Assembly (NCBI GenBank): GCA_964585945.1
Contig: CAZPGB010000006.1
Coordinates: forward strand, 7,724-71,723
Direction: 5' to 3'
Length of the DNA stretch: 64,000 nt
Source: an uncultured bacterium
Lineage (GTDB): Bacteria; Eisenbacteria; RBG-16-71-46; CAIMUX01; WJJG01
Position 1 is the stretch's first letter, and each line of letters starts with the position of its first letter. Below the pieces are notes generated by a model. It worked only from the letters and a program-made list of their open reading frames with translations. It did no database searches and had not been told where the DNA came from. Below are positions 3,376 to 24,508 of this stretch, in pieces. The position numbers and the translations under genes were made by a program.

Positions 3376-4678
3376 GACGCTGCGACTGGCCCGCCGCGAG
3401 TACCTGGCGGCCGTGCGAACGAAGGGCTTCCTGATCGCGATCCTGGTGATGCCGCTCTTGATGGGGGGCAGCGCCCTGGGAATGCTGCTGCTGAAGGACC
3501 AGGTCGACACAACCGACAAGCGCGTGGCGGTCATCGACCGCTCGGGAGCCGTGGGCGAGGTTCTCCGCGTTGCGGCCGAGGCGCGCAACGAGTCGGAGGT
3601 CTTCGACGACGAATCGGGCGAGAAGGTTAAGCCGGCCTACGTGATCGATCTGGTGGCCCCCGAGGACGACGCCGGGGCCCAGCGCCTGGCATTGTCCGAT
3701 CGGGTGCGTCGCGGCGAGCTGCACGCGTTTCTCGACATCGGTCCCGACGTCCTGGAGCCGGGCGGGGACCCGGAGCGCGCCCGGATCGCCTACTACGGCA
3801 AGAACGCCGCCATGGATGATCTGCGCACCTGGATGGGTTATCCGATCAACCAGCATCTGCGCCGGTCCCGTCTGGCGGAGGCCGGGGTCGATGAGGCCGC
3901 CATGGAAGCGCTTTTCCGGTGGATCCCCGTCGAGGGGCTGGGGCTGGTCTCGCTGGACGCCTCGGGTCAGGTCAAGGAGGCCCGGCGCAGCAGCGAGGCC
4001 GAGGCGATCCTGGTGCCGTTCGGTTTGGCGATGCTCATGTTCATGATGGTGATGATGGGAGCGATGCCTCAGCTCCAGTCGGTCATGGAGGAGAAGTCGC
4101 AGCGTATCGCCGAGGTCCTGCTCGGGTCGATCAAGCCCTTCGAGTTCATGATGGGCAAGATTCTCGGCGGTCTGGGTGTCACGATCACCGCTTCTTCGGT
4201 CTACGTGGTGGGCGGCGTCCTTGCCGCACGCCACTACGGGGTGAGCGAGTACGTGCCCTATCACATCCTGCCCTGGTTCTTCGCCTACATGCTGCTGGCG
4301 ATCATGATGCTGGGCGCATTCCTCGCGGGCCTGGGCGCGGCCTGCAACGACGCCAAGGAGGCCCAGGGCGTGACGCTGCCGGCCATGATGCCGGTCATGA
4401 TCCCGATGTTCGTCGCCATGCCGGTGCTGCGCGAGCCGCACAGCGCGTTCGCCACCGTCATGTCGCTGGTGCCGCCGTTCACGCCCATGCTGATGCTGCT
4501 GCGGCAGAGCGCGCCGGGAGGCGTGCCCGGCTGGCAGCCCTGGGTGGGCGTCGTGGGCGTGCTGCTGCTGACCCTGTTGACCGTATGGGCCGGCGGTCGC
4601 ATCTTCCGCGTCGGGATCCTCATGCAGGGGACGCCGCCCAAGCTGGGCAACCTCGTGCGCTGGGCGGTGAGGGGCTAG
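3368..4678 (+). CDS. ABC-2 family transporter permease
   Basis: Start ATG at 3368 overlaps the ATPase stop (ATGCGTAA). N-terminal TM segment, a large loop, then about 5 C-terminal TM helices typical of ABC-2 / NatB-like permeases. Confidence 0.8.
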   Translation: MRKTLRLARREYLAAVRTKGFLIAILVMPLLMGGSALGMLLLKDQVDTTDKRVAVIDRSGAVGEVLRVAAEARNESEVFDDESGEKVKPAYVIDLVAPEDDAGAQRLALSDRVRRGELHAFLDIGPDVLEPGGDPERARIAYYGKNAAMDDLRTWMGYPINQHLRRSRLAEAGVDEAAMEALFRWIPVEGLGLVSLDASGQVKEARRSSEAEAILVPFGLAMLMFMMVMMGAMPQLQSVMEEKSQRIAEVLLGSIKPFEFMMGKILGGLGVTITASSVYVVGGVLAARHYGVSEYVPYHILPWFFAYMLLAIMMLGAFLAGLGAACNDAKEAQGVTLPAMMPVMIPMFVAMPVLREPHSAFATVMSLVPPFTPMLMLLRQSAPGGVPGWQPWVGVVGVLLLTLLTVWAGGRIFRVGILMQGTPPKLGNLVRWAVRG

Positions 4679-5761: not shown

Positions 5762-6805
5762 CTAGTCGAAGTGGGCGTTGATCAGCGGCGTCCAGCGCAG
5801 CCCGCGGGGATTGTTGCCGGCGTAGTTGAGCAGACCGAGCTGCATGCCGTGCAGCTCGTCGGCGTAGTTGACCAGTCCGATGGTCAGACCGTGAACCTCG
5901 TCGCGGAAACGGGTCACGGCGGCCGCGCCGAAGCCCTCCAGCCGCTCGCCCCACAGGTATCCACCCGCGAGGTGGGCGCCGGTCATCGTCTCGGCTCGGA
6001 TGCCGCCTGCCGTGGCCAGGAGACCCTGAGTCTCGTCGCCGCCCAGCCCCAGCCCGCTCAGGAACAGGCCCTGCAAGCGGTGGCCGCCCGCCCCCAGGCC
6101 GGCCACGAAGATGCCGGTCATGTCGTGGCCGCCCATGCCGAGGCCCGCGGTGAAGATGCCGGTCATGTCGTGGCCGCCCATACCGAGGCCGGCGGTGAAG
6201 ATGCCGGTCATGTCGTGGCCGCCCATACCGAGGCCCGCGGTGAAGATGCCGGTCATGTCGTGGCCGCCCATGCCGAGGCCCGCGGTGAAGATGCCGGTCA
6301 TGTCGTGGCCGCCCATGCCCAAGCCCGCCGCGCAGAGACCCGTGATGTCGCTGCCGCCCACGCCGAGACCGGCCACGAAAGCTCCGTCCATCCGGTTCGC
6401 GCCCATGCCCAGTCCAGCGGCGCCGAGCCCGGTGAAATGCCCGGAGCTGAAGCCAAAGAGGCCCACCGCGACGCCCTCGATGTCCGGCTCGCCTGTCCCG
6501 ACCACCGAGAGGTACGCGCCCGAGATCCGATCGCCGGTGTTGCCGCCCAGGCCGAGCACCAGGCCCTCGTAGACCGCGCCCGGATTGCGGCCCGGCTTCC
6601 AGAGCGTGAGGTTCAGCCCCGAGATCCGCGCCACGCGACGATCGCTCCAGTTGAAGCGCAACCCGGTGAATTCCCTGCTGTTGCCGAAAGAGATGCCGTA
6701 GCTCTCGCTGGGCAGCTCCAGCGTCTGGGCGCTGGCGTGAACCGCCACCAGCGCTGCCAAGCACCCGAACAGGCGCCCGGCCGTCCCTCCGATTCCGCCA
6801 CGCAT
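5762..6805 (-). CDS. secreted glycine-rich tandem-repeat protein (15-residue GHDMTGIFTAGLGMG repeats; C-terminal GLVNYA/GLLNYA motifs)
   Basis: ATG (cat at 6803-6805) with a G-rich RBS. Signal peptide LAALVAVHASAQ. Five near-identical 15-aa repeats. Its C-terminus resembles the repeat region of the caspase-domain protein at 14517..16703. Confidence 0.6.
   Translation of the reverse strand: MRGGIGGTAGRLFGCLAALVAVHASAQTLELPSESYGISFGNSREFTGLRFNWSDRRVARISGLNLTLWKPGRNPGAVYEGLVLGLGGNTGDRISGAYLSVVGTGEPDIEGVAVGLFGFSSGHFTGLGAAGLGMGANRMDGAFVAGLGVGGSDITGLCAAGLGMGGHDMTGIFTAGLGMGGHDMTGIFTAGLGMGGHDMTGIFTAGLGMGGHDMTGIFTAGLGMGGHDMTGIFVAGLGAGGHRLQGLFLSGLGLGGDETQGLLATAGGIRAETMTGAHLAGGYLWGERLEGFGAAAVTRFRDEVHGLTIGLVNYADELHGMQLGLLNYAGNNPRGLRWTPLINAHFD
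6113..6337 (-). repeat. five tandem 45-bp near-perfect direct repeats (gccggtcatgtcgtggccgcccatgccgaggcccgcggtgaagat) inside CDS 5762..6805
   Basis: Read directly from the sequence. Units start at 6113, 6158, 6203, 6248 and 6293, with single-base differences. Degenerate copies extend to both sides. Confidence 0.9.
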
Positions 6806-11858: not shown

Positions 11859-12716
11859 TCAGCGTTGCCATCCGAACCGCTCCACCATGGTCCGGTAGCC
11901 GGGCTCGGATCCCTCCGGATAGCGCGCCTTCCAGCGCCGGTAGATCGCGCGCAAGCGGTCCGGAGAAGCATCCTCCTCCAGCAGGGGCGCCAGCGTCGAT
12001 AGGAGGAAGTCGGAGTCGGCATAGCTGAAGTAGGCCCACGAGAGAATGGGGCTCGCGCTCCAGCGCGCCTGATAGACGCGGTCGCCGTCGGACGCCAGCA
12101 TGGCGATCAGGTGCTGTTCACCGTCGATGAAGAGCGAGAGCCACTGCACCGCCCAGCGGCGCAGGAGATCGGCGCTGCTGCGGTTGAGGATCACGTCGAC
12201 CCCGCTCACGTCCGCGGGCTCGTAGACCTGCACCGCCAAGCGCACCCCGCGTCGAACCGCGGCGCGAATCTCATCCTCGAGCTGGCGCAAGGGCTCGGGA
12301 AAGAGATCCAGGAACCCGACCTCGCGGCTACCCCTCAGCATCTGCCGGCACCGGCTGTAGACCTGGTCCACCGTCTGCAACGCGTAGACCCGACTGTCGT
12401 CGGGTGAGCACCCCAGTTCCCGCACCGCTTCGGCCACCTGGGCCCGTTGCTCCTGAAACCGATGGGCCATCTGCTCGAGCAACTCATCCGGGGGAACCGC
12501 TCGGCACAGGCGGGCGTCTCCGTCGTCCACGAGGATGGCGCCCTTGGCCTGCAGGGAAGCCAGGGCTTTGTAGGTGTTCGTCTTCGACCGGCCGATCCCC
12601 TTGGAGATCTTGTAGCCGGTGGCAGGGGAGTGCTGGATGAGAAAGACGTAGATTTCGGCCTCGAGCTGGGTGAGCCCGATGTCGCGGAAGAGACGCACGC
12701 ATTCACTCGATCCCAT
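11859..12716 (-). CDS. TrmB-family winged-helix transcriptional regulator (paralogue 1)
   Basis: N-terminal TrmB HTH: IGLTQLEAEIYVFLIQHSPATGYKISKGIGRSKTNTYKALASLQAKGAI. Start taken at the internal Met (MGSSE); ORF start 12773 is the alternative. 34-40% identical over its full length to the 13301..14170 protein. Confidence 0.65.
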   Translation of the reverse strand: MGSSECVRLFRDIGLTQLEAEIYVFLIQHSPATGYKISKGIGRSKTNTYKALASLQAKGAILVDDGDARLCRAVPPDELLEQMAHRFQEQRAQVAEAVRELGCSPDDSRVYALQTVDQVYSRCRQMLRGSREVGFLDLFPEPLRQLEDEIRAAVRRGVRLAVQVYEPADVSGVDVILNRSSADLLRRWAVQWLSLFIDGEQHLIAMLASDGDRVYQARWSASPILSWAYFSYADSDFLLSTLAPLLEEDASPDRLRAIYRRWKARYPEGSEPGYRTMVERFGWQR

Positions 12717-12929
12717 GGCGCTGCCCCTATCGGATGGTCTCACGGGTCGATGGGATTGCCAGCGCGAAGCCACGATGGTGGCGACTCTACACCGTGATGC
12801 GGTTGGCCAGAAGGGTGGAAGTGGAGGGGGAGGGAGCCGTCTCGACCAGAGATCGGCCGGCCGGGCGATTCCCGGCGTGGGCGCGACCCCGCGCTCACGC
12901 GACGTCCGCCGCGCGCACGGGGGGGGACG

Positions 12930-13286
12930 CTAGGAGTCCTCGACGTGGACGAACGGACGCAGCACACGGCCAATGCACTTCAGCATCCCGCCCATGCCCA
13001 GACCGTTGTCCAAGGGCTTGTAGGTGCACTCCACGCCGCCCAAGCGGACCCCCACCGTGGGTGTCGTGGCCCCGTCACCGCCTCCCAGCCCGCTGAGGGA
13101 CACCTCGCAGCCGGCGATCTCGAAGGTCACGCTCAAGCCCGGGCAGTCCGCCGCCGCAGCGTCCGCCGCCAGGATAGGGGAGGTCAGCAGCAGGATCGTC
13201 AGAATGCTACCGATCCAAACCGCCCTGCGCGCGGCCAGCCATCCGGCGACCCGGCCGCTTGTCGATCTGTCCGCCATGCGTTGCAT
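12930..13286 (-). CDS. small secreted cysteine-containing hypothetical protein (about 118 aa)
   Basis: ATG (cat at 13284-13286) preceded by GGAGAGGAAACG. Signal peptide IGSILTILLLTSPILAA. Four Cys residues. Lies 14 nt downstream of the TrmB-like gene 13301..14170. Confidence 0.45.
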   Translation of the reverse strand: MQRMADRSTSGRVAGWLAARRAVWIGSILTILLLTSPILAADAAAADCPGLSVTFEIAGCEVSLSGLGGGDGATTPTVGVRLGGVECTYKPLDNGLGMGGMLKCIGRVLRPFVHVEDS

Positions 13287-13300
13287 CGTTTCCTCTCCGC

Positions 13301-14170
13301 TCACGTGGAATTCCCTGCACTGCCTGCGAAACGTTGCTGCATATCTCGAAAGCCGTTGGAAATGAAAGCCGGGAAGGCCTCCGTCCAATGGCGATACTCC
13401 TCGCGCATCTCGGCGCTGCCGGCGCCGGCCTCCATCAGGTTGACCAGATCATTGGCCAGCAGCGTCCACTTCGCGTAGCTGGCCTGGCCCCAGGAGAGCA
13501 GCAGGCTGGCCGTCCACACCCCCTGGTGCAATCGCTCCTCGCTGCGGTCGAGGGCGGCCAGCAGGCTTTCGCGCCCGTCGGTGAAGACCGACATCCAGGA
13601 GATGGGCAGCATCTGCTCGGTCTGCTCGCTGCCCACCGCCACCGTGGTGCGCACCCCCGGAATCTGCGTCGGCTCGTATGCCATCAGCAAGACGCGCACA
13701 CCCCGGGCCGCGGCCTTGCGGATGTCTTCCCGAAGCTGTGCGAGCGGTCCGGGAAACAGGTCCAGCACGGCGATCGAGCGGCACTCGGCCAACATGATCC
13801 GGGCGCGCTCGAAGACCTGGGCGGCCGTGGTCAGACGGTAGACGCGCTCGTCGCTCTCGGACGGGATCAGGTCGCGCAACGATGCGCTGGCTTCCTGCCG
13901 CTGCCGGCCGAAGTCGCGCTCCAACCGGTCGAGCAGCTCCTCGGGCGCAATCGCCCGGCATTGACGCCCTTCGGCGTCATCGACGACCACCGCGCCGCGG
14001 GCCTGGAGAGAGGCCAGGGTCTTGTAGGTCGCGCCCTGGGTACGGCCGATCGCCTTGGCGATCGCGTATCCGGTGGCGGGTGAGTGCTGCACGAGGTGAA
14101 CGTAAACCTCGGCCTCGACTCGCGTAAACCCTAGTTTTTCAATGGCTTTCACGCCCGCCTCGGTGCTCAA
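13301..14170 (-). CDS. TrmB-family winged-helix transcriptional regulator (paralogue 2)
   Basis: TrmB HTH: LGFTRVEAEVYVHLVQHSPATGYAIAKAIGRTQGATYKTLASLQARGAV. TTG start at 14170 with GGAGG 3 nt upstream. Confidence 0.7.
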   Translation of the reverse strand: MSTEAGVKAIEKLGFTRVEAEVYVHLVQHSPATGYAIAKAIGRTQGATYKTLASLQARGAVVVDDAEGRQCRAIAPEELLDRLERDFGRQRQEASASLRDLIPSESDERVYRLTTAAQVFERARIMLAECRSIAVLDLFPGPLAQLREDIRKAAARGVRVLLMAYEPTQIPGVRTTVAVGSEQTEQMLPISWMSVFTDGRESLLAALDRSEERLHQGVWTASLLLSWGQASYAKWTLLANDLVNLMEAGAGSAEMREEYRHWTEAFPAFISNGFRDMQQRFAGSAGNST

Positions 14171-14516: not shown

Positions 14517-16703
14517 CTAGAACTGGATCCCCACGTAGTAGCCCGGCCACACGCGCACCCAGGTGCGGTCGCTCTTCTCGTCGTGCCAGAGGTCGCCGCC
14601 CACCAGGTCGCCGCCGTCGTTGCGCCGCGAGGTGAAGACGTTGACCGTGGCGCCGGCCGTGAGGGCCAGGCGCGGCGCGATCCGCCAGCCGAAGCCCACG
14701 CGGCCCTTGTTCAGCAAGTGCAGGTCGCGGTCGGATCGCTGGTCGCCCTCGCGCTCGTCCTCGAAGATGTAGTAGGAGAGCGCCTCCACCGTGCCGAAGA
14801 CCGACCCGCTCAGCGGCACGTGGGCGCCCCAGCCGAAACCGGCCAGCCACCGCTCGTTCTCTCCCGGTGACTCGACGCCCCCGGCGAAGATCGAGTAGAT
14901 GCTGCGGTTGCCGAGCTGCACGCCGACCATCGGGCCGCCGGCGTCGGTGTGCCACACGGCGGGGCGATGCCGTCCCCGTTGCACCAGGCTGAGCACCCCG
15001 ACCGGAGCGCCGGCGACATCTTGGGCGACGTTGAGGACGCCGATCTGCGCGCCCGAGACCGTGCGCGCCACATTGACCACGCCGATCTGCGCACCTTCGG
15101 CGTGGCCACTCACGTTGACGACGGAGAGCTGGAGTCCCCGCAAGGAAGGGGCGTAGTTGCCCAGCCCGCTGGCCTGCACGCCTTCGCAACGACCCAGGCT
15201 GATGCTGGCCAAGCCGGCCCCCTGGAAGAAGCCGACATCACCTTCCACGACGTTGAGCGCCCCCCACTGCATGCCCTGGAATGCGCCGCCGATGGAGTTG
15301 GCCAAACCCGCCCATTGGATCGCGCGCACATCCCCGCGGACACGGTTGATCAGACCCGAGAACTGCGCCCCTTCGAGGTCGCCCTCGACCAGATTGAGGC
15401 CGCCGGCGATCTGCAGGCCGTCGACGTTGCCCAGGTTCCAGTTGCCGACGTAGCCGATCTCGAAGCCGTTGACACCCGCGTTGCGTCCGAGGGTCAGATT
15501 GAGTGAGATGTCGCTCACGGTGCGCTCCGCCTCGGGCCCCGCGGTGCTCATGCCCGGCCACAGGCTGGCGGTGAAGTCTCGGTGAAGGACCTGGGTCTCC
15601 TCGATCGTTGCCTCGGGGGTGGGTGGGAACTCGCCGCGCGCGGCGGTCGCCTCGGGGGTCATCGGGATCAGATCGGCCATCTCCAGCCGCGTGAGCCCTT
15701 CCTCGGGCAGGTGGATCGCAGCGGTGTAGTAGCGACCGTCGTGGTCGAGAAAGACGCGGTAGTCGCCGGCATCCAAGCCCAGCTCGATGTGCCGTCCCTG
15801 GGGCTTGTGCAGCTCCACCACCAGAGCGTCCTGCGCGTCGCGCACGTGGAGGCGACCCTGCACCGATTCGGTCAGCACCAATCCGGCGCTGCTCGTGCGC
15901 AGATCGGTCATCACCAGATCGCCGGCGCCGACCATCTGGATGTCGTACCCGGGATGCTGGGGTCCGCTGAGCGTGCCCTCGGTGCGGGCGAGGGTGGTGT
16001 GAAAGGCGAACTGGTAAGCCTCGTTCAGCGTCACGCGCCGGTCCTGGGTGACGTCGGCCGCTCCGCGCAAACCGGTGACCAGGGCGTGGGTGAAGAAGCT
16101 GCCGCGGATGCGGTCCGATTCCTGCGCCGCCTCGTCGTGGGAGCTGGAGGTGAGGAACGCATGGCCCTTCATCTTGGCCGACGCGTCCATCAGAAACGGC
16201 GGTCGCCGGCGGCCCCCTTTCAGCCGCGTGAACGCGCCCGAGGCGCAGCTATCCAGGATGATGATCCGCACGTCGGCCGACACGGCGTTCACCGCCGCGC
16301 GCAAGTCGGTATAGGACAGGAGCTCCTCGCCCAGCCGCAATCCTTGGTCGTCGGAGTGTCCGGAGTAGTAGAGAATCAACTCCACGCGGCTGTGCTCTCG
16401 GGCGGCCGCGGCGATGCGGCCCTCGAGCTCGCCGAGCGACTGTCGCAGCGCCGCCGGTCCGGCGTCGAGCAGCAGCAGCCGGTCTTCGGGGTCGACGCCG
16501 CCCAGGTTCTCGAATACCCGCGCGACCGTCTGCGCGTCGGTGGCGGCGTAGTGCAGCGTGACCCGATTCGCCCCGCCGTCGTTGTTGCCCAGCGCCAGGA
16601 GGAAGCGGCGCACGGAGAAGACCTCGTCCTGTTCCTGGGCGCCGGCCGGCCCCCAGAGGGCCGCCCACAGCAGGGCCGACGCGATGCAGAGCAGACGCTT
16701 CAT
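14517..16703 (-). CDS. exported peptidase C14 (caspase/orthocaspase-like) domain protein with C-terminal Gly-rich 14-residue repeat domain
   Basis: Signal peptide MKRLLCIASALLWAALWGPAGAQE. Catalytic dyad context ILYYSGHS and IIILDSCASG. The C-terminal half carries repeats GAQIGVVNVARTVS / GAQIGVLNVAQDVA / GLQLSVVNVSGHAE. The start overlaps the upstream gene stop (ATGA at 16700-16703). Confidence 0.8.
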   Translation of the reverse strand: MKRLLCIASALLWAALWGPAGAQEQDEVFSVRRFLLALGNNDGGANRVTLHYAATDAQTVARVFENLGGVDPEDRLLLLDAGPAALRQSLGELEGRIAAAAREHSRVELILYYSGHSDDQGLRLGEELLSYTDLRAAVNAVSADVRIIILDSCASGAFTRLKGGRRRPPFLMDASAKMKGHAFLTSSSHDEAAQESDRIRGSFFTHALVTGLRGAADVTQDRRVTLNEAYQFAFHTTLARTEGTLSGPQHPGYDIQMVGAGDLVMTDLRTSSAGLVLTESVQGRLHVRDAQDALVVELHKPQGRHIELGLDAGDYRVFLDHDGRYYTAAIHLPEEGLTRLEMADLIPMTPEATAARGEFPPTPEATIEETQVLHRDFTASLWPGMSTAGPEAERTVSDISLNLTLGRNAGVNGFEIGYVGNWNLGNVDGLQIAGGLNLVEGDLEGAQFSGLINRVRGDVRAIQWAGLANSIGGAFQGMQWGALNVVEGDVGFFQGAGLASISLGRCEGVQASGLGNYAPSLRGLQLSVVNVSGHAEGAQIGVVNVARTVSGAQIGVLNVAQDVAGAPVGVLSLVQRGRHRPAVWHTDAGGPMVGVQLGNRSIYSIFAGGVESPGENERWLAGFGWGAHVPLSGSVFGTVEALSYYIFEDEREGDQRSDRDLHLLNKGRVGFGWRIAPRLALTAGATVNVFTSRRNDGGDLVGGDLWHDEKSDRTWVRVWPGYYVGIQF

Positions 16704-17533
16704 GGGCGCGACTCCTTCTTGCGGAGTATCCGGGCGTGTTGGTCGAGGCCGTCGGGCAGCGCGAGCAGATCGTGGGCCGCCCGCTCGGGTGATCGGGCCA
16801 GCTCCCGCGCGGCGGCCAGCACGGCGGCCGCGTCGATCGGACCCTCGGATGTGATCAGAAAGAAGCGCTCGAAGTCGGGCGCATCGTCCAGTTCGTAGGC
16901 ATGGGGCAGAAGCTGCTCGCCGCCCTCGGCGAGCTGGGTCGACCCCCGGGCGGTGGCGGGGAAGTGAAGCACCACCTCGCCCCGGCCGTCGATCGAGAGG
17001 ATCACCGCGTGGCGCGCCGCCAGCGGCACGACGCCGAGCTGCAGCACATCGCCCGCGCGGGCGACGTCCCCATCGGCCAGGGCGTCGAACCCTTCGCCGG
17101 CGCGGCGGTAGAGCCGCAGATGGGTCTCGCCCTTGGCACGGGTCGTCTCGGTCGCGGTTGCGGCGACGGAAGGCGCCTCCGGGACCGGCGGCGTCCGATC
17201 CGGTCGCACCACCAGCAGCAGCAGGACGGCCGCCGCGGCCACGGCCGGCGCCAGCAGCATCCAGCGGGGCGCCTGTCGCGCGGGAGCCGGACCTTCGGCG
17301 GCAGGCGCCGCATCGGCGGCATCGACCCGGCGGGTGACCTCGGCCGCGAAGACCTCGGGCGGCGTGGCCTCCAGGATCTCCTCGTTCGACCGGTGCAGCG
17401 ACTCGAAGCGCTCGCGCAACCGCCGGTCGGTCCGCAAGCGATGAGCCAGCGCCTCCTGCTCGTCCGGCGGCAGCTCCCCCAGCGCATACAGCTCCAGCAG
17501 ATAGGTGGGGACGGCGTTGGGCGCATCGGTCAT
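16700..17533 (-). CDS. putative transmembrane anti-sigma factor
   Basis: N-terminal anti-sigma-like region (YLLELYALGELPPDEQEALAHRL). Single TM (WMLLAPAVAAAAVLLLLVV). An extracytoplasmic domain of about 130 aa. 4-nt overlap with the sigma gene upstream and the caspase gene downstream. Confidence 0.6.
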   Translation of the reverse strand: MTDAPNAVPTYLLELYALGELPPDEQEALAHRLRTDRRLRERFESLHRSNEEILEATPPEVFAAEVTRRVDAADAAPAAEGPAPARQAPRWMLLAPAVAAAAVLLLLVVRPDRTPPVPEAPSVAATATETTRAKGETHLRLYRRAGEGFDALADGDVARAGDVLQLGVVPLAARHAVILSIDGRGEVVLHFPATARGSTQLAEGGEQLLPHAYELDDAPDFERFFLITSEGPIDAAAVLAAARELARSPERAAHDLLALPDGLDQHARILRKKESRP

Positions 17534-18015
17534 GATCCTGCTCCTTCCATCTCGAGCGCCCGGGCGCGCAGCATGCGGAGGCGCTTGCGCACGCCCGACA
17601 CCGAGAGACCCACTTCCCGCGCCACCTGCTCGAGCGTCAGGCCGTCGCGGTAGTGCAGCACGGCGATGAGCCGCGTCGAGGGTCGCTCGCGGCGGAAGAT
17701 CCGATCCAGGCGCAGGCTGGCGAAGATGCCCGCCTCGCTGTCGGAGGCGCAGGCGATGCGCTGGAGCAGCGCGTCGTCGGCGTCTTCAGGATGCCGGCGC
17801 TGAGAGCGCAAGATGTTCAGGCACACATGGGTCGCCATCCGCATCAGCAGTCCCGCCGGCGCGCTGTCGGTCAGGCGGTCCTGGTTGCGCACGAGCTGGA
17901 CGAACACGTCCTGCGCTGCTTCCATCGCCCTCTCCTCGTTGCGCAGCATCTCCCGGCAACGGCGGACCACCATCGGCCCGTAGCGCCGGTACCATGCCTC
18001 GACATCGATCGGCAC
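17530..18015 (-). CDS. ECF (group IV) RNA polymerase sigma factor
   Basis: Sigma70 region 2 (AAQDVFVQLVRNQDRL) and region 4 HTH (LTLEQVAREVGLSVSGVRKRL). GTG start at 18015 after GCAGGAGGGAGG. Confidence 0.85.
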   Translation of the reverse strand: MPIDVEAWYRRYGPMVVRRCREMLRNEERAMEAAQDVFVQLVRNQDRLTDSAPAGLLMRMATHVCLNILRSQRRHPEDADDALLQRIACASDSEAGIFASLRLDRIFRRERPSTRLIAVLHYRDGLTLEQVAREVGLSVSGVRKRLRMLRARALEMEGAGS

Positions 18016-18227: not shown

Positions 18228-18893
18228 TCAGAAGATCTGCCCGATCGCGTCCTTGAAGTCGCGGGTGAGGAACTGCACGCGCCCGATCAGAAGCGAGACG
18301 CGCGCCATGACCGTGTAGCCGAAGGAAGCGCCGAAGCCGGCCATGATGCAGAGCCGCCCGAAGTAGGCGAAGCGGCCCACCGCCCCCTTGTGCTCCACCG
18401 AGAAGAGGAAGAAGACCAGGCAGGCCAGCGTTCCCACGACCAGGAAGATCGCCCCGATCGAGGCGCCCAGGTTGCTCGTGAAGGTGCCGTTGGGATCCAG
18501 CGCGACCAGGCTGCGCACCGTGCCCTCGGTTTGCTGGAGGATGCGCCCCTCGAGCGTGGCCGGGATGCTGAGCCCCGAGCTGGCGCCCAGCAGGAAGGCC
18601 AGCGACCAGCGGCTCAGCCAGCCGTGCTTGGGCGTGAAGCGGGTGAAGAGCAGGATGCCGAAGATCAGGGGGATCAGGTAGTCGTACTTGCCCTGGTAAA
18701 GGATGTTGTCCCAGATCTTGGGCAGGAAGATGTTGTTGTAGTAGGTGATGATGATGAAGCCGACCGAGATGCCGACCGCCAGGTGCTCGGCCATCTTGTA
18801 GAAGGGATTGTCCCGGTAGAGGAAGGAGTAGATGGCCAGGGTGACCAGCCCTGCCAGCAGGGTCCACACGATGTTGAAGCCCCCTGATTCCAT
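18228..18893 (-). CDS. uncharacterised polytopic membrane protein (module gene D)
   Basis: Six predicted TM segments; Phe/Tyr/Asn/Ile-rich. Local GC about 55-58% versus about 70% in flanking DNA. Confidence 0.55.
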   Translation of the reverse strand: MESGGFNIVWTLLAGLVTLAIYSFLYRDNPFYKMAEHLAVGISVGFIIITYYNNIFLPKIWDNILYQGKYDYLIPLIFGILLFTRFTPKHGWLSRWSLAFLLGASSGLSIPATLEGRILQQTEGTVRSLVALDPNGTFTSNLGASIGAIFLVVGTLACLVFFLFSVEHKGAVGRFAYFGRLCIMAGFGASFGYTVMARVSLLIGRVQFLTRDFKDAIGQIF

Positions 18894-18950
18894 CTAGCCT
18901 CTCCTCCGGGCCGCGCACGATGCACGGCGATGCGTCTGCAAGCCGTCCAT

Positions 18951-19793
18951 CTAGGCGCCCCTCCTGCGGGCCGTCAGGTAGGCGACGTTGCCCAGCACGA
19001 TGAACAGGATGATCAGGTAGTGGATCACCTTCTGGGACCGCATGCCGTTGGTCCCGTCGCCCAGCTTGCCCACGCGCTTCTCGTACTCGGCCGCTCCTTT
19101 GAGACCTCCCAGCACGCCCTTGATCTGCCCGCTCTGGTAGAAGGGCTGGATGTCGGCCGTGTAGACGGCCGTGAGACCGGTCAGGACGGTCAGGCCGTAG
19201 CGCGACCCCGGGTAGATCGCCCAGAACTCGCCGACCGCGGTGGACGCCAGGCTGAGCACCGCCGGGATCTGGTCGTAGTTCTGGATGTTCTCCATCATCG
19301 GGATCTCATCGATCGGCGTTCCGTAGTAGTCCTTCGGGAACGTGCGCTTGATGTCCTCACCCATCTGGAGCATGGCCACCGCCGCGTTGGGCTGAAAGCC
19401 CAGGAAGGCCCAGTCGATGTCCCGCTTGCGGTCGTACTGGGCGGCGATCCGCGGCACCACGTCAGCCGCGATGCCGGCCCCCAGGCCGGTGTACTGCAGG
19501 CTGATCACCAGGACACGGATGTTGCGCGAGAAGCAGTGGTGCAGCACGGCCTCGGCCATCGGCGTCAATTCGGCCGAAGCGGCCGGGTCGTAGTCGAAGG
19601 AGAGCAGGAGCGGGTTCGCGTCGGGCTGGATCTGATCGATGATCCGGAAGGTGTCCTCCACCTCGCGGGAGACATCCACGCGGACGGGCGGCCAGGCCAC
19701 GTAGAACGGAATGACCACGCCGATGAACACCAGCGTGAAGATCACCCGTCGGTCCAGCTTGAGCATCCGGTCCAGGAGCGTCGGTGTCTCCAT
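18951..19793 (-). CDS. uncharacterised bitopic membrane protein (module gene C)
   Basis: N-terminal TM (VIFTLVFIGVVIPFYVA), a central soluble domain of about 200 aa, and a C-terminal TM (VIHYLIILFIVLGNVAYL). Confidence 0.55.
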   Translation of the reverse strand: METPTLLDRMLKLDRRVIFTLVFIGVVIPFYVAWPPVRVDVSREVEDTFRIIDQIQPDANPLLLSFDYDPAASAELTPMAEAVLHHCFSRNIRVLVISLQYTGLGAGIAADVVPRIAAQYDRKRDIDWAFLGFQPNAAVAMLQMGEDIKRTFPKDYYGTPIDEIPMMENIQNYDQIPAVLSLASTAVGEFWAIYPGSRYGLTVLTGLTAVYTADIQPFYQSGQIKGVLGGLKGAAEYEKRVGKLGDGTNGMRSQKVIHYLIILFIVLGNVAYLTARRRGA

Positions 19794-19796
19794 CGG

Positions 19797-20432
19797 CTAC
19801 TCCTTCCCGGACCCCAGATAGGACCGCTCGATGCCCATCACCACCTTGAGCGCGGTCGAGGCCATGCCCAGACCCACGCCCAGAATGATCGCCCGCTTCG
19901 CCACCAGGTTGGGGTTGTCCAGAATCCAGCGGGCGATCGCGGGGATGCCCAGGGAGGCGCCCTCGTCGAGCCGGCCGATCATGACGATGACCGCGGCGAT
20001 GAGCAGAATGGTTGCATCGACGCTGCGCGTGCGGAAGGCGCGGAAAGCCGCCGAGGCCAGATAGAAGGCCAGCAGCGAGAACATCGTCGCCTGCACCGGC
20101 AGCAGGATGGCGTTGAAGAGGTCCTGATACAGCGTGCCTTCGCCCCGTCCGCCGATGAAACCGGCCAGGAGCATCACCGTCAGCCCGACCAGCGCGGCCA
20201 GGCTGTAGACCCAGTCCTTGTGCCGCTTGCGCTCGGGCCCCGAACGCTGCACGCGGTGGGTGTGGCGCTGGATGACGCTGGCCAGTCCCAGGATGATCGA
20301 GAAGGCGTAGACGATCTGCATGTAGTCGTTGATGCGGTCGTAGTAGGGCAGGAACGCGGGCACGAAGTACTGGATGGCCATGAAGCTGCCGGCCAGGAAG
20401 CAGATCGTCAGCGGTACGCGCGTCCTCATCAT
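19797..20432 (-). CDS. uncharacterised polytopic membrane protein (module gene B)
   Basis: About 5 TM helices. ATG at 20432 overlaps the stop of gene A (ATGA). The ORF track start 20471 would overlap gene A by 43 nt. Confidence 0.55.
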   Translation of the reverse strand: MMRTRVPLTICFLAGSFMAIQYFVPAFLPYYDRINDYMQIVYAFSIILGLASVIQRHTHRVQRSGPERKRHKDWVYSLAALVGLTVMLLAGFIGGRGEGTLYQDLFNAILLPVQATMFSLLAFYLASAAFRAFRTRSVDATILLIAAVIVMIGRLDEGASLGIPAIARWILDNPNLVAKRAIILGVGLGMASTALKVVMGIERSYLGSGKE

Positions 20433-21679
20433 CCGCCCGACCCCCTCACGCGCAAGATCTCGTTGACCCAAGCGATCGGCTCACCGCGCACCAGCGCGCC
20501 GGCGGTCATCAGGGCCACGCCGACGATGATCATCAGAATGCAGAGCAGCTTGTAGTAGTCCTGCCCTTTCAGGCTGCCCAGCAGCGTCGGCTCGCGGCCG
20601 ATGTAGGCGCTGGCCGCGTAGAGCTCCTCGCCGATGATGGTGTAGTCGCAGGCGGTGACGAAGAAGGGTAGCTGCGTGATGGCGTCGGTGCCGGCGATCT
20701 GGATCGCCCCCACCGAGGCGCCGGTCTCGGCCAGTACGAGCGACTCGGCGTAGAACATCCCCAGCAGCAGATTGGCCCCGGGCCGCTCGCGCACCATCGT
20801 GCCGCAGACGGCCGCCGCGTAGGTGAACTGGTCGTTGGTGACGAAGTAGATGTCCTCGGGCCGGTAGTTGTGGGGGAAGCCGGCGGCGATGAAGGCCTCC
20901 TTGACGACGTCCTGCGTAACCGGATAGACGATCGGGTCGCGGTTGGGAATCAGGATGCGCGCCTGGTAGCGGGCGATCTTCTTGGCCACCTCGGAGAGGA
21001 TGTTGAGCGAGGCGATCGTGGCTACGTCCTGGATGGTGCTGATGCCGGGAATGTAGAGTGTCGGCCGGCCCATCTCGGTGCAGCGCCCGACGGCCTCGTC
21101 GATGGCGTCGAGGCCCGCGATGCGGCGGATCTTGAGCTCGCGACCCCGGCGGGCGACGTGGATGAAGCCCAGGATCATCGCCACGAAGATGATGACCGCC
21201 ACGAGCGTGTTGAGCTTGTTCGTGTAGAACCACTGCCGCGCGGGCGCCACCGGGGCCGAGGGCTCCGTGCTCGCCCGCATGCCGTCGGGACCATGCGTCT
21301 CGATCATGTAGACGTAGCTGCGGCCGGGGCGCAGTCCGGTGTCGTCGTAGCTGAAGCTCTCGGTGCGCAGGCGGGCCGGGAACGACTTCACCACGGCGAA
21401 GCTGTCCACCCCGGGATCCTGCCGCAGGATGACGTAACGGTCGACGGTGGGCGCATCCATCGCGTCACCGGGCGCGCGCCCGAACTGGATGCGCAGCGCG
21501 GTGCCGGCGTCGAGCGGCTTGTCTTCCACGGAGAAACCGGTGACGGGGGCGACGGCCGATGCAACTGCAGCAAGGGGGAGTGCGAGCGCGAGCAGCACCA
21601 AGGCGATGATCTCGGATGTCCGCTGTGTCCGTGCTAGGCCCAAGCCGGTGCGTTCCACGCGCCCCTCGTCCTCCACCAA
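20429..21679 (-). CDS. uncharacterised membrane protein with N-terminal signal/TM, FN3-like beta domain, TM, conserved about 220-aa domain, C-terminal TM (module gene A)
   Basis: TTG/GTG start region at 21659-21679 (RBS GAGGACGAGGGG before the GTG at 21661), so the start is uncertain. Beta-rich segment RYVILRQDPGVDSFAVVKSF...YVYMIETHGPDG. Hydrophobic helices VAVIIFVAMILGFIHV and LLCILMIIVGVALMTAGALV. Confidence 0.55.
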   Translation of the reverse strand: MVEDEGRVERTGLGLARTQRTSEIIALVLLALALPLAAVASAVAPVTGFSVEDKPLDAGTALRIQFGRAPGDAMDAPTVDRYVILRQDPGVDSFAVVKSFPARLRTESFSYDDTGLRPGRSYVYMIETHGPDGMRASTEPSAPVAPARQWFYTNKLNTLVAVIIFVAMILGFIHVARRGRELKIRRIAGLDAIDEAVGRCTEMGRPTLYIPGISTIQDVATIASLNILSEVAKKIARYQARILIPNRDPIVYPVTQDVVKEAFIAAGFPHNYRPEDIYFVTNDQFTYAAAVCGTMVRERPGANLLLGMFYAESLVLAETGASVGAIQIAGTDAITQLPFFVTACDYTIIGEELYAASAYIGREPTLLGSLKGQDYYKLLCILMIIVGVALMTAGALVRGEPIAWVNEILRVRGSGG

Positions 21680-21790
21680 GACCTCATGGGAATGCCCGTC
21701 GCCTATTCGCAGCGGATCCTAACAGGATCGACGCTCCGGTGCAAACCCGCGTCGGCTGCGGGGCCGGATCCCGCTTCTTCGGCCGCCCCG

Positions 21791-24508
21791 TCAGCGCAGC
21801 ACCAACACGCGTGCCCGGGCCGCGCCGCGTGCGCTCTGCCAGTGGAGCCAGTAGACGCCGCCCGGCACGAGATGCCCGCTTCGGTCGTGTCCGTCCCAGT
21901 GGAGGCGGTGCGCGCCGGGGGCCGCGTGCGCGCCGTCGAGAAGCGTAACGATACGCCGGCCGTCGGGACCAAAAAGGGCGAGGGTGCCGCGCGCCTGGGC
22001 GGGCAGGTGGAGCCGGATCGAGGCGCCCGACAGCACCGGGTTGGGGGAGATCTCCAGCCGGGGACCCGCTGCGCGGGCGGTGGGCCCGGCGGGGTCCACC
22101 GCCGGACCTCTCACCCCGGAGGTCGACGGCACACCGGTGAAGGACAGATCGTCGAGATACCAGCCGCGGCGCACGACGTTGCGGTCCGAGCCGAACTGCC
22201 ATCGCAGGCGCACCCACTGTCCACACAGCGCGTCCAGCGCGAAGGTGCGCTCCACCCAGGCGCCGGTCGTGCCGGTGAAGGCCTGCTGGCCGCCGATCGG
22301 GTTGCAGTTGCCGTCGACGATGCCGTCGTAGCCCTCGGCGGGCGCGACCAGGCTCCAGCTCTGGCCGCCGTCGGTCGATGCGCGCAGGTGTCCGCCGTCG
22401 CTGGCCGCCTCGTTCTCATACCAGGTCCAGCAGCGCAGCGTGGCCGCCTCGAAGTGGACCAGACTGAGCGGCGGCGCGTCGAGGCGATCGTCGGCGCAGG
22501 CGTCGTAGTCCTCGCCCAGCACCGTGCCCCAGACCCGGCTCCCTGAGTGGGCGCCGGCCATGGCGTCGCTGCCCCAGGCCCACTCGCCGAACGGGTCGAG
22601 CCCTTCGCCGGAGGTCTCGAAGTCCCAGACGTCGGCCAGGGTGAAGTCGACGCCGTGCGCGGCCTCGCCCTGCGCCAAGAACAAGGTGCGTCCGCGGGGC
22701 ATCCGGTCGGGCAGCGAGGCGCAGAGCGCGAGGGTGCCCGGCCAGACCGGATCGAGGACGTAGACGCCGTCGGGGCCGGTGAGCGCGCTGGCCGTCTGTC
22801 CCTCGATCTCCACCCTGGCGCCCGGCAGGGGTGCGCCGCCGGGCGAGCGCACCGTGCCGCTGAGGCTGCCGGCCACGAGCGGATCGAGCATCAGGTCGAG
22901 CGCCACGACGGCGCCGCCGGTGACGCTCACCATCACCGTGTCGGGCCAGCAGCCGGACGTCCCGGCGACCAGGGTGTACGCGCCGGGAAAGATCTCGCCG
23001 AAGGCATACTGGCCGTCGGCTCCGGTCACCTGCACCGGATACCCGGTGCCCACCAGACGCAGCGTCGTGTTCGACGGATCGCCGCCCCCCGCGATCGACA
23101 CGGTGCCCTGAATGCCGCCGGGGAGGTCCTGCACCTGGGCGAGCTGGGCGGCGGCGATGGCGTTGGTCACCGTGATCTGGCGCCACAGCCAAGGGTCCAA
23201 CCGGTCGACGCGGTCGCAGAACCGGTGGTAGCAGGGGTTGCTGTCCCACTCGTTCTCGATCGACAGCACGGCGGGAAAGCCGTGGTTGTGAAACGGCACG
23301 TGATCGGAGCCGAAGCCTTCGCCGGGATAGCGGTAGATGGTGAGCCCGGCGTGGTCGACCGCGACCTGCTCGAGCAGATCCATCATCCAGACCGAGCTCG
23401 TGCCCTCGTAGAACCCCTCGAGCCAGAGGTCCTCGCCCTGGGGGTCGTGGTAGCCGGTCATGTCCATGTTGAAGACGCCGCGGATGTCCATCCCCTGCAG
23501 CTCGGCCTCCGACGCGAAGTGCTCGCTGCCGTGCAGGCCCTGCTCCTCGGCGGAGAAGCAGATGAAGATGAGGGTGTAGTCGGTCGTCACGGGCGCCAGC
23601 AGGCGCGCGATCTCCAGGACGGCCGCGGCGCCCGAGCCGTTGTCGTCGGCGCCGGGGGCCAGGTTCTGCGGGTCGGGCGAGGTCGAGTCGAGGTGGCCGC
23701 CGACGATGTAGATGCGGTCGGGGTCGACCGCGCCCTCCTTGATGGCGACCACGTTCTTCAGCTCGTACGACATGTAGGTGAACGGATCGAACCAGGCCGT
23801 CAGGCCGGCCGCTTCGAAGGCGGCCTTGGCGTAGGCGCAGGCCAGCTCCATCTGGGGCGTCCAGGAGTGGCGCGTCTGCAGCTCGGTCGACAGATAGTCG
23901 AGGTCGCCGGACATCCGGTCCGCACGCACCGCCCCGGCGAGCGCGCTCCAGAGGTCCCGTGCGGCTCCGGGGAGCGTGCTCATGGGCTCGCCGCGGTCGA
24001 TCGCCTCGGGCGGTCGCCGGGGCACGACGCGCTGGGCCCGGCCTCCGGGGCCCGCCTTGAAGGGCCAGTCGCCCGGGGCTAGCTGCAGCAGGGCCACCGC
24101 GCGGTCCGCATCCAGGACCAGCGGGTCGCGGGGGGGAGGACCGGCGTGGGCAGCGCCGCCGGCGGACCAGCCCGCGGGCCAGACGCCGGCGCGCAGCGCC
24201 TCGAGCTCGCGGTGCGGCACGAGGAGATAGACCGATCCCTCCCGGTGTCCGCCCACCGCCGTGACGGCCGGATCGTCCAGCCACCTGCTGCCGGCCGGCA
24301 GCAGGCCCAGCGAGCGGCCGGCAAAGGTGTGCAGCACTCGCCAGTCGGGCACGTCGCCGGCGGATCCACCCTCCCAAGATGCTACAATAAAATCGTTTAC
24401 GCTTGAATCTTCAGGCTCGGCGCGAGACCCGTCCGCGCTCGCGGCGATGGCGGCCAGGGTCAGCGCAAAGGCCCATGATAGGGCGAGTGTCTTTCGGATC
24501 CAGACCAT
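21791..24508 (-). CDS. secreted M28 family zinc aminopeptidase with C-terminal beta-sandwich/sorting-type domain
   Basis: Signal peptide. M28 motifs IVGGHLDS, DDNGSGAAAVLE, FSAEEQGLHGS, GSDHVPF. CarbopepD_reg-like repeats. A C-terminal segment of about 80 aa resembles FlgD-Ig/T9SS-type C-terminal domains. Confidence 0.8.
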   Translation of the reverse strand: MVWIRKTLALSWAFALTLAAIAASADGSRAEPEDSSVNDFIVASWEGGSAGDVPDWRVLHTFAGRSLGLLPAGSRWLDDPAVTAVGGHREGSVYLLVPHRELEALRAGVWPAGWSAGGAAHAGPPPRDPLVLDADRAVALLQLAPGDWPFKAGPGGRAQRVVPRRPPEAIDRGEPMSTLPGAARDLWSALAGAVRADRMSGDLDYLSTELQTRHSWTPQMELACAYAKAAFEAAGLTAWFDPFTYMSYELKNVVAIKEGAVDPDRIYIVGGHLDSTSPDPQNLAPGADDNGSGAAAVLEIARLLAPVTTDYTLIFICFSAEEQGLHGSEHFASEAELQGMDIRGVFNMDMTGYHDPQGEDLWLEGFYEGTSSVWMMDLLEQVAVDHAGLTIYRYPGEGFGSDHVPFHNHGFPAVLSIENEWDSNPCYHRFCDRVDRLDPWLWRQITVTNAIAAAQLAQVQDLPGGIQGTVSIAGGGDPSNTTLRLVGTGYPVQVTGADGQYAFGEIFPGAYTLVAGTSGCWPDTVMVSVTGGAVVALDLMLDPLVAGSLSGTVRSPGGAPLPGARVEIEGQTASALTGPDGVYVLDPVWPGTLALCASLPDRMPRGRTLFLAQGEAAHGVDFTLADVWDFETSGEGLDPFGEWAWGSDAMAGAHSGSRVWGTVLGEDYDACADDRLDAPPLSLVHFEAATLRCWTWYENEAASDGGHLRASTDGGQSWSLVAPAEGYDGIVDGNCNPIGGQQAFTGTTGAWVERTFALDALCGQWVRLRWQFGSDRNVVRRGWYLDDLSFTGVPSTSGVRGPAVDPAGPTARAAGPRLEISPNPVLSGASIRLHLPAQARGTLALFGPDGRRIVTLLDGAHAAPGAHRLHWDGHDRSGHLVPGGVYWLHWQSARGAARARVLVLR

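Follow-up and report, generated by a model that had tools for sequence, protein, structure and literature searches.

Organisation, promoter and distribution of the operon

The stretch of DNA analysed here (the window) comprises 64,000 nucleotides (nt) of contig CAZPGB010000006.1 from an uncultured bacterium of the Eisenbacteria lineage, and the system in question is a run of three minus-strand genes encoding a sigma factor of the extracytoplasmic function (ECF) type, a single-pass anti-sigma-like protein and a caspase-fold protease. Comparison with related genomes identifies this three-gene module as a real, widespread and largely uncharacterised variant of ECF signalling, and the sequence evidence strongly supports the unit as a self-contained, autoregulated ECF signalling operon. 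The genes and the predicted promoter are as follows.

17530-18015, minus strand: ECF sigma factor gene, 161 amino acids, GTG start
16700-17533, minus strand: anti-sigma-like (ActD-like) gene, 277 amino acids
14517-16703, minus strand: protease (ActE-like) gene, 728 amino acids
18045-18071, minus strand: predicted ECF-type promoter, with -35 element GTGACA at 18071-18066, a 16-nt spacer and -10 element GTGTT at 18049-18045 (extended GGTGTT from 18050)

Stop and start codons of adjacent genes overlap as ATGA, read on the reverse strand, at 17533-17530 (sigma/anti-sigma) and 16703-16700 (anti-sigma/protease), and the gene coordinates and overlaps given in the original prediction could be read directly from the DNA. 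A Shine-Dalgarno-like sequence lies ahead of the sigma gene (AGGAGG, 18029-18024), and another ahead of the caspase gene (AAGGAG, 16717-16712). The assignment of the first gene to an ECF sigma factor with regions 2 and 4 was borne out by matches to NCBIfam TIGR02937 (sigma70-ECF, 55.3 bits, cut-off 42.9) and Pfam Sigma70_r2 (41 bits, cut-off 24), with Sigma70_r4_2 slightly below its cut-off (24.5 against 25.7 bits); the 161-residue protein consists of sigma2 and sigma4 regions only, as in ECF (group 4) sigma factors. Its GTG-initiated N-terminus lines up with homologues that start with ATG (for example at L039; L numbers are our labels for related loci), and the nearest solved structure is the ECF factor SigE (9m9d_F, E about 1e-3).

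For the comparison, the best 80 genome loci and a few others were collected, their open reading frames (ORFs) were searched with profiles of the three window proteins, and counts were restricted to the 68 non-redundant loci at which 1.5 kb or more of sequence precedes the protease gene. The synteny raised by the original prediction holds beyond this genome, with sigma factor, anti-sigma protein and protease encoded in that order at 56 of the 68 loci; five keep the anti-sigma/protease pair but have no sigma gene next to it, and seven have the protease gene alone. The full trio occurs in at least five phyla (Myxococcota, Spirochaetota, Fermentibacteria, Eiseniibacteriota and Latescibacterota), and within Myxococcota in Myxococcaceae, Polyangia, Nannocystaceae, Haliangium, Anaeromyxobacter and Bradymonadales. 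The module is common, as at least 575 of 599 matched stretches listed from GTDB species-representative genomes encode a relative of the protease, and more than 3600 full-length protease homologues were found in the protein collection. No conserved fourth gene emerged, in that no flanking family was found in more than about 10 of 79 loci and the recurring ones are lineage-specific Myxococcaceae neighbours.

The GTG start of the sigma gene follows about 30 nt downstream of the window promoter motif, GTGACAGATTCGGGCGGACCCGGTGTT at 18071-18045 on the minus strand. When bipartite words were enumerated upstream of the 56 sigma genes, GTGAC-N17-GTGT was found at 28 loci and GTAAC-N17-GTGT at 16 more, compared with a maximum of 8 in shuffled sequences, and the relaxed pattern G-GT(G/A)ACA-N15-(G)GTGTT was present 50-85 nt upstream of the sigma gene at 44 of the 56 loci, a set that runs from AT-rich spirochaetes to GC-rich myxobacteria. 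With a weight matrix derived from the other loci, the window site scored 31.8 and was the sole site of at least 12 on either strand of the 64-kb window; over both strands of 1.65 Mb of related loci, sites of at least 18 were nearly confined to the regions upstream of these operons. The window site is also the sole pattern match when up to one mismatch is allowed, a count that is not significant by itself, with 0.38 matches expected per 64-kb window, and the promoter call is therefore made on position and on conservation across loci. At loci lacking an adjacent sigma gene (L002, L018, L027, L032 and L034), the motif stands immediately upstream of the ActD-like gene, and at L013 it stands directly upstream of a lone caspase gene. 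We infer that the conserved motif acts as the sigma factor's own autoregulatory promoter.

Together with the ATGA overlaps, this ECF-type promoter would place the protease gene on the sigma-dependent transcript, and the comparative promoter evidence thus agrees with the suggestion that the caspase gene belongs to the sigma factor's own transcription unit. A consensus scan inside and upstream of the operon found no sigma70-type promoter and no intrinsic terminator, the single sigma70-like site (14259-14231) being that of the next gene downstream (13301-14170, TrmB family), which lies 346 nt from the operon. On the other side, 212 nt separate the operon from the upstream gene, which ends at 18228.

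A few motif sites in related loci precede other envelope genes, which encode MotA/ExbB, TonB-dependent-receptor-like proteins, DUF2807 lipoproteins, small lipoproteins and small outer-membrane proteins. Directly behind the motif are TonB-dependent-receptor-like genes with a Plug domain in Spirochaetota (L053 1116-3470, L056 893-3292 and L058 897-3275), a MotA/ExbB channel gene (L008 2452-3120) and, in Fermentibacteria, an adenylate/guanylate cyclase gene (L003 3633-4544), while in Archangiaceae genes for DUF2807 "GIN-domain" lipoproteins are inserted between promoter and sigma gene (L050, L062 and L078, about 2950-3730). Two paralogues of the operon's own products also lie behind the motif: a 387-residue protein with repeats and barrel only and no caspase domain (L016 1217-2380), and a 189-residue protein with a transmembrane helix and a periplasmic DUF4384-like domain, without an anti-sigma domain or the K-G motif described below (L010 3018-3587).

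Architecture of the anti-sigma-like protein and the protease

The second protein was modelled from an alignment of 40 homologues, with a predicted local distance difference test score (pLDDT) of 85.7, and its predicted parts are listed here.

Residues 1-80, minus strand: predicted cytoplasmic helical N-terminal domain
Residues 90-108 (17210-17266), minus strand: predicted transmembrane helix
Residues 111-132, minus strand: predicted disordered linker
Residues 136-277 (16703-17128), minus strand: predicted periplasmic Ig-like, DUF4384-related domain, folded part 138-272

One hydrophobic helix at residues 90-108 is followed by a disordered linker and then a folded domain, as in a single-pass protein, and the extracytoplasmic part measures about 170 residues, of which about 135-140 are folded, close to the extracytoplasmic domain of about 130 residues that had been proposed. 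The N-terminal domain forms four helices (residues 10-75, pLDDT above 90), one of which carries an L-x-x-x-x-L-G-E-L pattern that is nearly invariant among homologues. NCBIfam antisigma model NF052375 matches residues 12-144 (E 1.8e-10), with a score of 41 bits that lies under its cut-off of 100. Residues 1-80 are free of cysteine and so lack the zinc H-x3-C-x2-C motif of the ZAS subclass; if this is an anti-sigma domain, it is therefore of the non-zinc kind. Searches of the anti-sigma profile against the sequences of solved structures gave no match even at E 10, and Foldseek with the model returned only generic Ig-like sandwiches and no match for the small helical domain. The top fold match of the periplasmic domain was the Ig-like AGS-C domain 9ard_A (E 9.5e-3, probability 0.99). 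A check against DUF4384 (PF14326), suggested by the original prediction, gave a divided outcome: the divergent window protein remains under threshold (15.2 against 27 bits), whereas 11 of the 40 homologues match (best E 4e-6). Searched alone, the periplasmic domain retrieved 3183 cluster representatives (50% identity clusters), and in the best 150 of these matches it mostly occupies the same C-terminal place in proteins of about 230-330 residues, with about a dozen of 156-200 residues. Source annotations of the homologues vary among ActD, ActD-like, DUF4384, and anti-sigma RskA or RsiW. Overall, the comparison strongly supports a single-pass anti-sigma-like protein with a helical cytoplasmic domain, which may bind the sigma factor.

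The third protein was modelled with a pLDDT of 83.7 and is predicted to consist of the following parts.

Residues 1-22 (16638-16703), minus strand: predicted signal peptide, with an A-G-A|Q cleavage-type motif by sequence; in the model, helix 2-16 followed by a low-confidence segment
Residues 31-242 (15978-16613), minus strand: caspase/metacaspase-fold catalytic domain, with His116 at 16356-16358, Cys153 at 16245-16247 and predicted S1 residues Asp56 and Asp151
Residues 254-348 (15660-15944), minus strand: beta-sandwich in the model, then a disordered linker 351-369
Residues 373-575 (14979-15587), minus strand: predicted beta-solenoid with G-x-Q...N repeats of 14-16 residues
Residues 578-728 (14520-14972), minus strand: predicted OmpA-like eight-stranded outer-membrane beta-barrel, ending ...YVGIQF

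Pfam Peptidase_C14 scores 33.7 bits on this protein (cut-off 21.4), and family and fold place it with the caspase-hemoglobinase proteases; the NCBIfam model "caspase, EACC1-associated type" matches weakly (68 bits, cut-off 140). The C14 protease with a His/Cys dyad that had been predicted is thereby confirmed at the family level, and the two motifs, YYSGHS and LDSCASG, are present with His116 and Cys153 invariant in all 120 aligned homologues. Asp56 and Asp151 are likewise invariant (120 of 120). Asp95 and Asp211 of the Trypanosoma enzyme TbMCA-Ib are reportedly the acidic residues of its S1 pocket (McLuskey et al. 2012). By a 25-residue offset, these correspond to Asp120 and Asp236 of the Candida glabrata metacaspase CgMCA-I, whose YSGHG and DSCHSG motifs hold the catalytic His182 and Cys238 (PMC9622860). 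The family profile pairs YSGHS with YSGHG and DSCASG with DSCHSG of this enzyme, and likewise Asp56 with Asp120 and Asp151 with Asp236. Orthocaspases and metacaspases are described as cleaving after basic residues (PMC6426788, PMC9622860). With His116, Cys153, Asp56 and Asp151 all invariant, we therefore predict an active enzyme whose cuts fall after Arg or Lys.

The N-termini of the protease homologues are all hydrophobic, and the beta-sandwich block is strongly conserved in their alignment. The original prediction had overlooked this sandwich (254-348) as well as the C-terminal barrel (578-728) and the promoter at 18071-18045, and its glycine-rich repeat domain stood in part, in that the repeats are real while their period is 14-16 residues rather than 14, clear over about residues 425-575. 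At the DNA level, searching the caspase gene for tandem repeats turned up nothing beyond a trivial 15-bp repeat in the part encoding the signal peptide, so that the stalk repeats are visible only in the protein sequence. In the barrel model, eight strands span residues 578-727 without a helix, and the best structural matches are the eight-stranded OmpA, OprF-N, NspA and PagL. The C-terminal residue is I, F, L or Y in 102 of 120 homologues, and the window protein ends in ...GIQF. This model predicts a protease with an outer-membrane anchor, in contrast to the freely secreted enzyme that had been supposed. An eight-stranded barrel has both of its termini in the periplasm, and the loop lengths of the model fit this orientation; the catalytic domain therefore most likely faces the periplasm, hanging from the outer membrane opposite the periplasmic domain of the anti-sigma-like protein.

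Elsewhere in the window, a 347-residue ORF at 5762-6805 on the minus strand has a signal peptide and glycine-rich repeats of the same class as the protease stalk, including five perfect 15-residue tandem copies of GMGGHDMTGIFTAGL. It matches the protease-family profile only at positions 387-554 (E 1.6e-18) and is without a caspase domain, a barrel or an upstream ECF promoter motif; as it overlaps other long ORFs, the gene call is tentative. In Myxococcaceae, protease paralogues without an adjoining anti-sigma or sigma gene occur at L036, L046, L051, L057, L075 and L079, which may represent a different functional context for the same architecture. Flank clustering placed a family of genes encoding about 920 residues upstream on the same strand at nine of the related loci, with L036 (1099-3861), one of the six just named, as an example; its N-terminus is TonB-C-like by eye.

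A motif shared by both proteins, and readings of the operon

A short motif, T-R-x-K-G, is common to the anti-sigma-like protein and the protease.

17129-17143, minus strand: T131-R132-A133-K134-G135, at the linker/domain boundary of the anti-sigma-like protein, candidate cleavage site
16212-16229, minus strand: T159-R160-L161-K162-G163-G164, 6-11 residues past the catalytic Cys of the protease, candidate autoprocessing site

Among 238 anti-sigma homologues, T131 is kept in 158, R132 in 200, K134 in all 238 and G135 in 235; among 120 protease homologues, T159 is kept in 101, R160 in 119, and K162, G163 and G164 in all 120. R-x-K-G as a whole was found in 119 of the 120 proteases and 199 of the 238 anti-sigma proteins, compared with about 10 in shuffled sequences. 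In the anti-sigma-like protein, the motif ends a disordered juxtamembrane linker of variable length, and in the protease it lies in a loop whose residues 161-177 are modelled at pLDDT below 50. The latter position corresponds to the intersubunit linker of caspases. Given the predicted Arg/Lys specificity and the occurrence of the motif in both proteins, we infer that T-R-x-K-G, cut between K and G, may be the recognition site of the protease, both for self-maturation and for a site-1 cut of the anti-sigma factor. The shared motif also strengthens the plausibility of the earlier suggestion that the protease acts on the anti-sigma factor.

These elements can be assembled into a signalling model in which the protease acts on its own anti-sigma factor within an autoregulated ECF operon, to which we assign a probability of roughly 40%. 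One transcript from the sigma factor's own promoter would yield sigma factor, single-pass anti-sigma protein and metacaspase-like protease, the last of which would hang from the outer membrane into the periplasm and face the anti-sigma domain projecting from the inner membrane. Upon an envelope signal, the protease would cut the anti-sigma protein at the K-G bond of T-R-x-K-G in the juxtamembrane linker (the site-1 cut), and the same motif in its own post-Cys loop would be a likely autoprocessing site. The site-1 cut would expose the anti-sigma protein to intramembrane proteolysis and free the sigma factor, which would in turn increase transcription of the operon and resupply protease and anti-sigma protein together.

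Several points weigh against this signalling model. The connection between protease and anti-sigma protein is drawn indirectly, from the motif and the predicted specificity; K134 and G135 could instead be structural, standing at the start of the periplasmic domain, and R160 and K162 could bind substrate instead of marking a cleavage site. The topology depends on a predicted barrel, and the order of protease, beta-helix and barrel recalls surface-displaying autotransporters. Paralogues under the same promoter (L016, L010 and the lone caspases) point to roles beyond control of the sigma factor, and in many ECF groups a conserved downstream gene is simply a regulon target. Finally, a distance-matrix (mirror-tree) test was run on the sigma factor, anti-sigma N-terminal domain, periplasmic domain, caspase, sandwich, repeats and barrel of 21 complete loci and the window; every part was found to co-vary with the others (r 0.48-0.86; partial r 0.15-0.54 controlling for sigma), and the test, which was non-discriminating, singled out no pairing of caspase and anti-sigma protein.

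The main rival, which we regard as a serious possibility and only slightly less probable, is that the protease is output only. Sigma factor and anti-sigma protein would then sense through the Ig-like domain or through other proteases (DegS- or Prc-like), and the protease would be the main product of the regulon, serving envelope quality control or remodelling, with the anti-sigma protein not among its targets. This would fit the position of the protease gene under a sigma-dependent promoter, the envelope proteins encoded by the other genes behind the motif, the occurrence of lone caspase paralogues and of caspase-less repeat-barrel paralogues, and the general tendency for conserved downstream genes to be targets in ECF groups. 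It leaves two observations unexplained: the conservation of T-R-x-K-G in both proteins, and the persistence of the 4-nt overlap between neighbouring anti-sigma and protease genes even at loci whose sigma gene lies elsewhere.

The resemblance to autotransporters raises the alternative that solenoid and barrel display the caspase outside the cell, where it would process extracellular or neighbour-cell proteins, which could explain the effect of the act genes on C-signal timing in Myxococcus (see below). We consider this unlikely, as the barrel has eight strands and not twelve and no linker helix, its best matches (OmpA, OprF-N, NspA and PagL) are barrels that cannot hold a polypeptide in the lumen, and the domain of the obligate partner is predicted to be periplasmic. 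Less likely again is a non-cleaving partnership, in which the protease or its stalk would bind the periplasmic domain of the anti-sigma protein, with T-R-x-K-G as a pseudosubstrate, and shield it from other proteases until a signal separates the two. The tight coupling of the pair and a gene order the same as that of fecI-fecR-fecA are in keeping with this, and protection of anti-sigma factors by TonB-dependent transducers in cell-surface signalling (PMC11637429) offers a precedent; the catalytic apparatus is fully invariant, which argues for real proteolysis, and no FecR or TonB-transducer domain was found with Pfam and NCBIfam. A programmed cell death or anti-phage defence module built around the caspase, which the programmed-response part of the original prediction had entertained, is very improbable and was dropped: bacterial caspase-like proteases do act in defence, as in craspase and SAVED-CHAT (PMC11506125), and the weak match to the EACC1-associated type points the same way, but the three proteins gave no match to PADLOC models at E up to 0.01, the locus lies outside any defence island and its neighbours are not defence genes, the protease is predicted to be exported and membrane-anchored, and across phyla the module passes vertically as one unit.

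Within the signalling model, the composition of the operon offers a concrete mechanism, as an outer-membrane-tethered caspase-fold protease may start regulated proteolysis of its own anti-sigma factor, and the operon may serve trans-envelope signalling of a kind not characterised before. A more specific version makes the stalk-held metacaspase an envelope-spanning sensor, a dedicated site-1 protease that would recognise T-R-x-K-G in its co-translated anti-sigma protein as it does in its own maturation. Contact between the two, and with it signalling, would depend on envelope geometry or integrity, with intermembrane distance or the condition of the outer membrane as possible cues. In this complete form it is somewhat unlikely; if true, an ancient sensor would have been recruited in Myxococcus, as actD-actE, to time C-signal production.

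Relation to the act operon, known systems and genomic surroundings

The original prediction could not place the operon in a characterised system, yet its second and third genes are homologous to the genetically studied actD and actE. Sequence comparison shows that the anti-sigma-like protein and the protease are homologues of ActD and ActE, encoded in the Myxococcus act operon (actABCDE), and the window operon is the widespread, sigma-linked ("ActD-like") form of actD-actE. The link is seen at L034 (Myxococcus sp. RHSTA-1-4), whose fourth protein is annotated "ActD protein" by NCBI and is matched by the window anti-sigma profile almost from the N-terminus onward (model position 3). The caspase gene next to this actD encodes a protein 41% identical to the window protease over residues 31-728, the pair retains the 4-nt overlap and the T/E-R-x-K-G motif, and the genes upstream of it have the makeup of actA, actB and actC, their products being a GGDEF response regulator, an NtrC-type sigma54 activator and an epimerase/GNAT protein. 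The actABC-type location was not found at the window, where the ECF sigma gene lies upstream instead, and the act arrangement was seen in L034 only.

The promoter motif is also present at this locus, as GGGTGACAGTTTCCACGGGCGCCGGTGTT at 4031-4065 of L034, in the actC-actD gap and 37 nt before the actD start. It is probably an internal promoter of the act operon that depends on a sigma factor encoded elsewhere, likely in a paralogous "ActD-like" operon; several genomes encode both "ActD" and "ActD-like", and Archangium gephyra has both on one 11.96-Mb chromosome. In Myxococcaceae, a second anti-sigma/protease copy is located downstream of actABC, where the sigma factor belonging to the first copy probably still drives it. 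Since the N-terminal helices are kept in ActD, it may bind that sigma factor too. Genetic work on the act operon and the timing of csgA expression was reportedly carried out by Gronewold and Kaiser in 2001 and 2002. According to two later papers that cite this work, how much C-signal is made, and when, is set by the act genes (PMC3824092, PMC4320627).

Among characterised systems, DdvS/DdvA of M. xanthus likewise combines an ECF sigma/anti-sigma pair with a periplasmic His-Cys caspase-fold protease, and the periplasmic caspase-like CHAT domain of DdvA has been proposed to cut its own flexible juxtamembrane linker before RseP acts (PMC11506125). There, protease and anti-sigma factor form one fusion protein, the protease being of the CHAT family and accompanied by TPR repeats, and DdvA has a zinc-binding anti-sigma domain and controls a CBASS/CRISPR defence island, whereas here the protease is a separate C14 protein predicted to be tethered to the outer membrane, the anti-sigma domain has no zinc motif and no defence genes are linked. 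FecI-FecR-FecA shares with the window operon the order of sigma factor, anti-sigma factor and outer-membrane protein, partners that (here by prediction) face each other across the periplasm, and autoregulation. Here, however, the outer-membrane partner would be a protease on a beta-solenoid stalk with an eight-stranded barrel, and Pfam and NCBIfam searches of the second and third proteins found no FecR domain, TonB-dependent transducer or signalling domain. RpoE-RseA with DegS and RseP resembles the mechanism proposed here in its two-step logic, in which a single-pass anti-sigma factor is first cut on the periplasmic side (site 1) and then within the membrane. DegS differs as an inner-membrane serine protease that is encoded elsewhere and activated by the C-termini of outer-membrane proteins, while the candidate site-1 protease here is a caspase-fold cysteine protease with a predicted outer-membrane anchor, whose gene shares a transcript with that of its presumed substrate.

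Characterised orthocaspases and metacaspases (Microcystis MaOC1, yeast Yca1, Arabidopsis MC4 and MC9) are cytoplasmic or soluble, whereas the present protein is predicted to be exported, is fused to a beta-sandwich, beta-solenoid and barrel, and is genetically tied to an ECF pair. Type Va autotransporters (Hap, Pet and EspP) share its signal peptide, protease, beta-helix and C-terminal barrel, but have a 12-stranded barrel, a lumen-spanning helix and a serine protease in place of eight predicted strands, no helix and a caspase-fold cysteine protease. The act operon differs in that the ActD/ActE pair follows actABC, whereas here and in most lineages it follows its own ECF sigma gene.

What was known already are ECF sigma/anti-sigma systems, bacterial caspase homologues and the names actD and actE. 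In the searchable literature, we found no description of the three-gene module, its promoter or the shared motif, and no account of ActD as an anti-sigma or anti-sigma-like protein or of ActE as an outer-membrane-anchored metacaspase-like protease; the supplementary ECF group descriptions lie outside that literature and may catalogue the association. The main text of Casas-Pastor et al. 2021 has no mention of caspase, C14 or DUF4384. ECF sigma/anti-sigma pairs are a major route of bacterial signalling, and for most groups the activating protease and signal remain to be found. The signalling model would give a molecular identity to actD and actE, known since 2001 only by their effect on Myxococcus developmental timing, and would add a role in envelope signalling to bacterial caspase homologues, which have so far been discussed mainly for cell death and defence.

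Finally, the surroundings of the operon in the window were inspected. G+C content is 65-73% throughout and operon composition is the same as that of its surroundings; the neighbours encode membrane proteins, TrmB regulators and peptidases, with defence genes not among them. Directly downstream, the minus-strand region 11859-14170 holds a small exported ORF (12930-13388) between two TrmB-family regulators that are paralogues of each other (13301-14170 and 11859-12773). Upstream, also on the minus strand at 18228-24508, lies a run of four membrane-protein genes, of which three have no Pfam match and the fourth matches DUF6754 (E 7e-114), and this run is preceded by a gene for a 905-residue M28 peptidase with CarboxypepD_reg and MAM-like domains.

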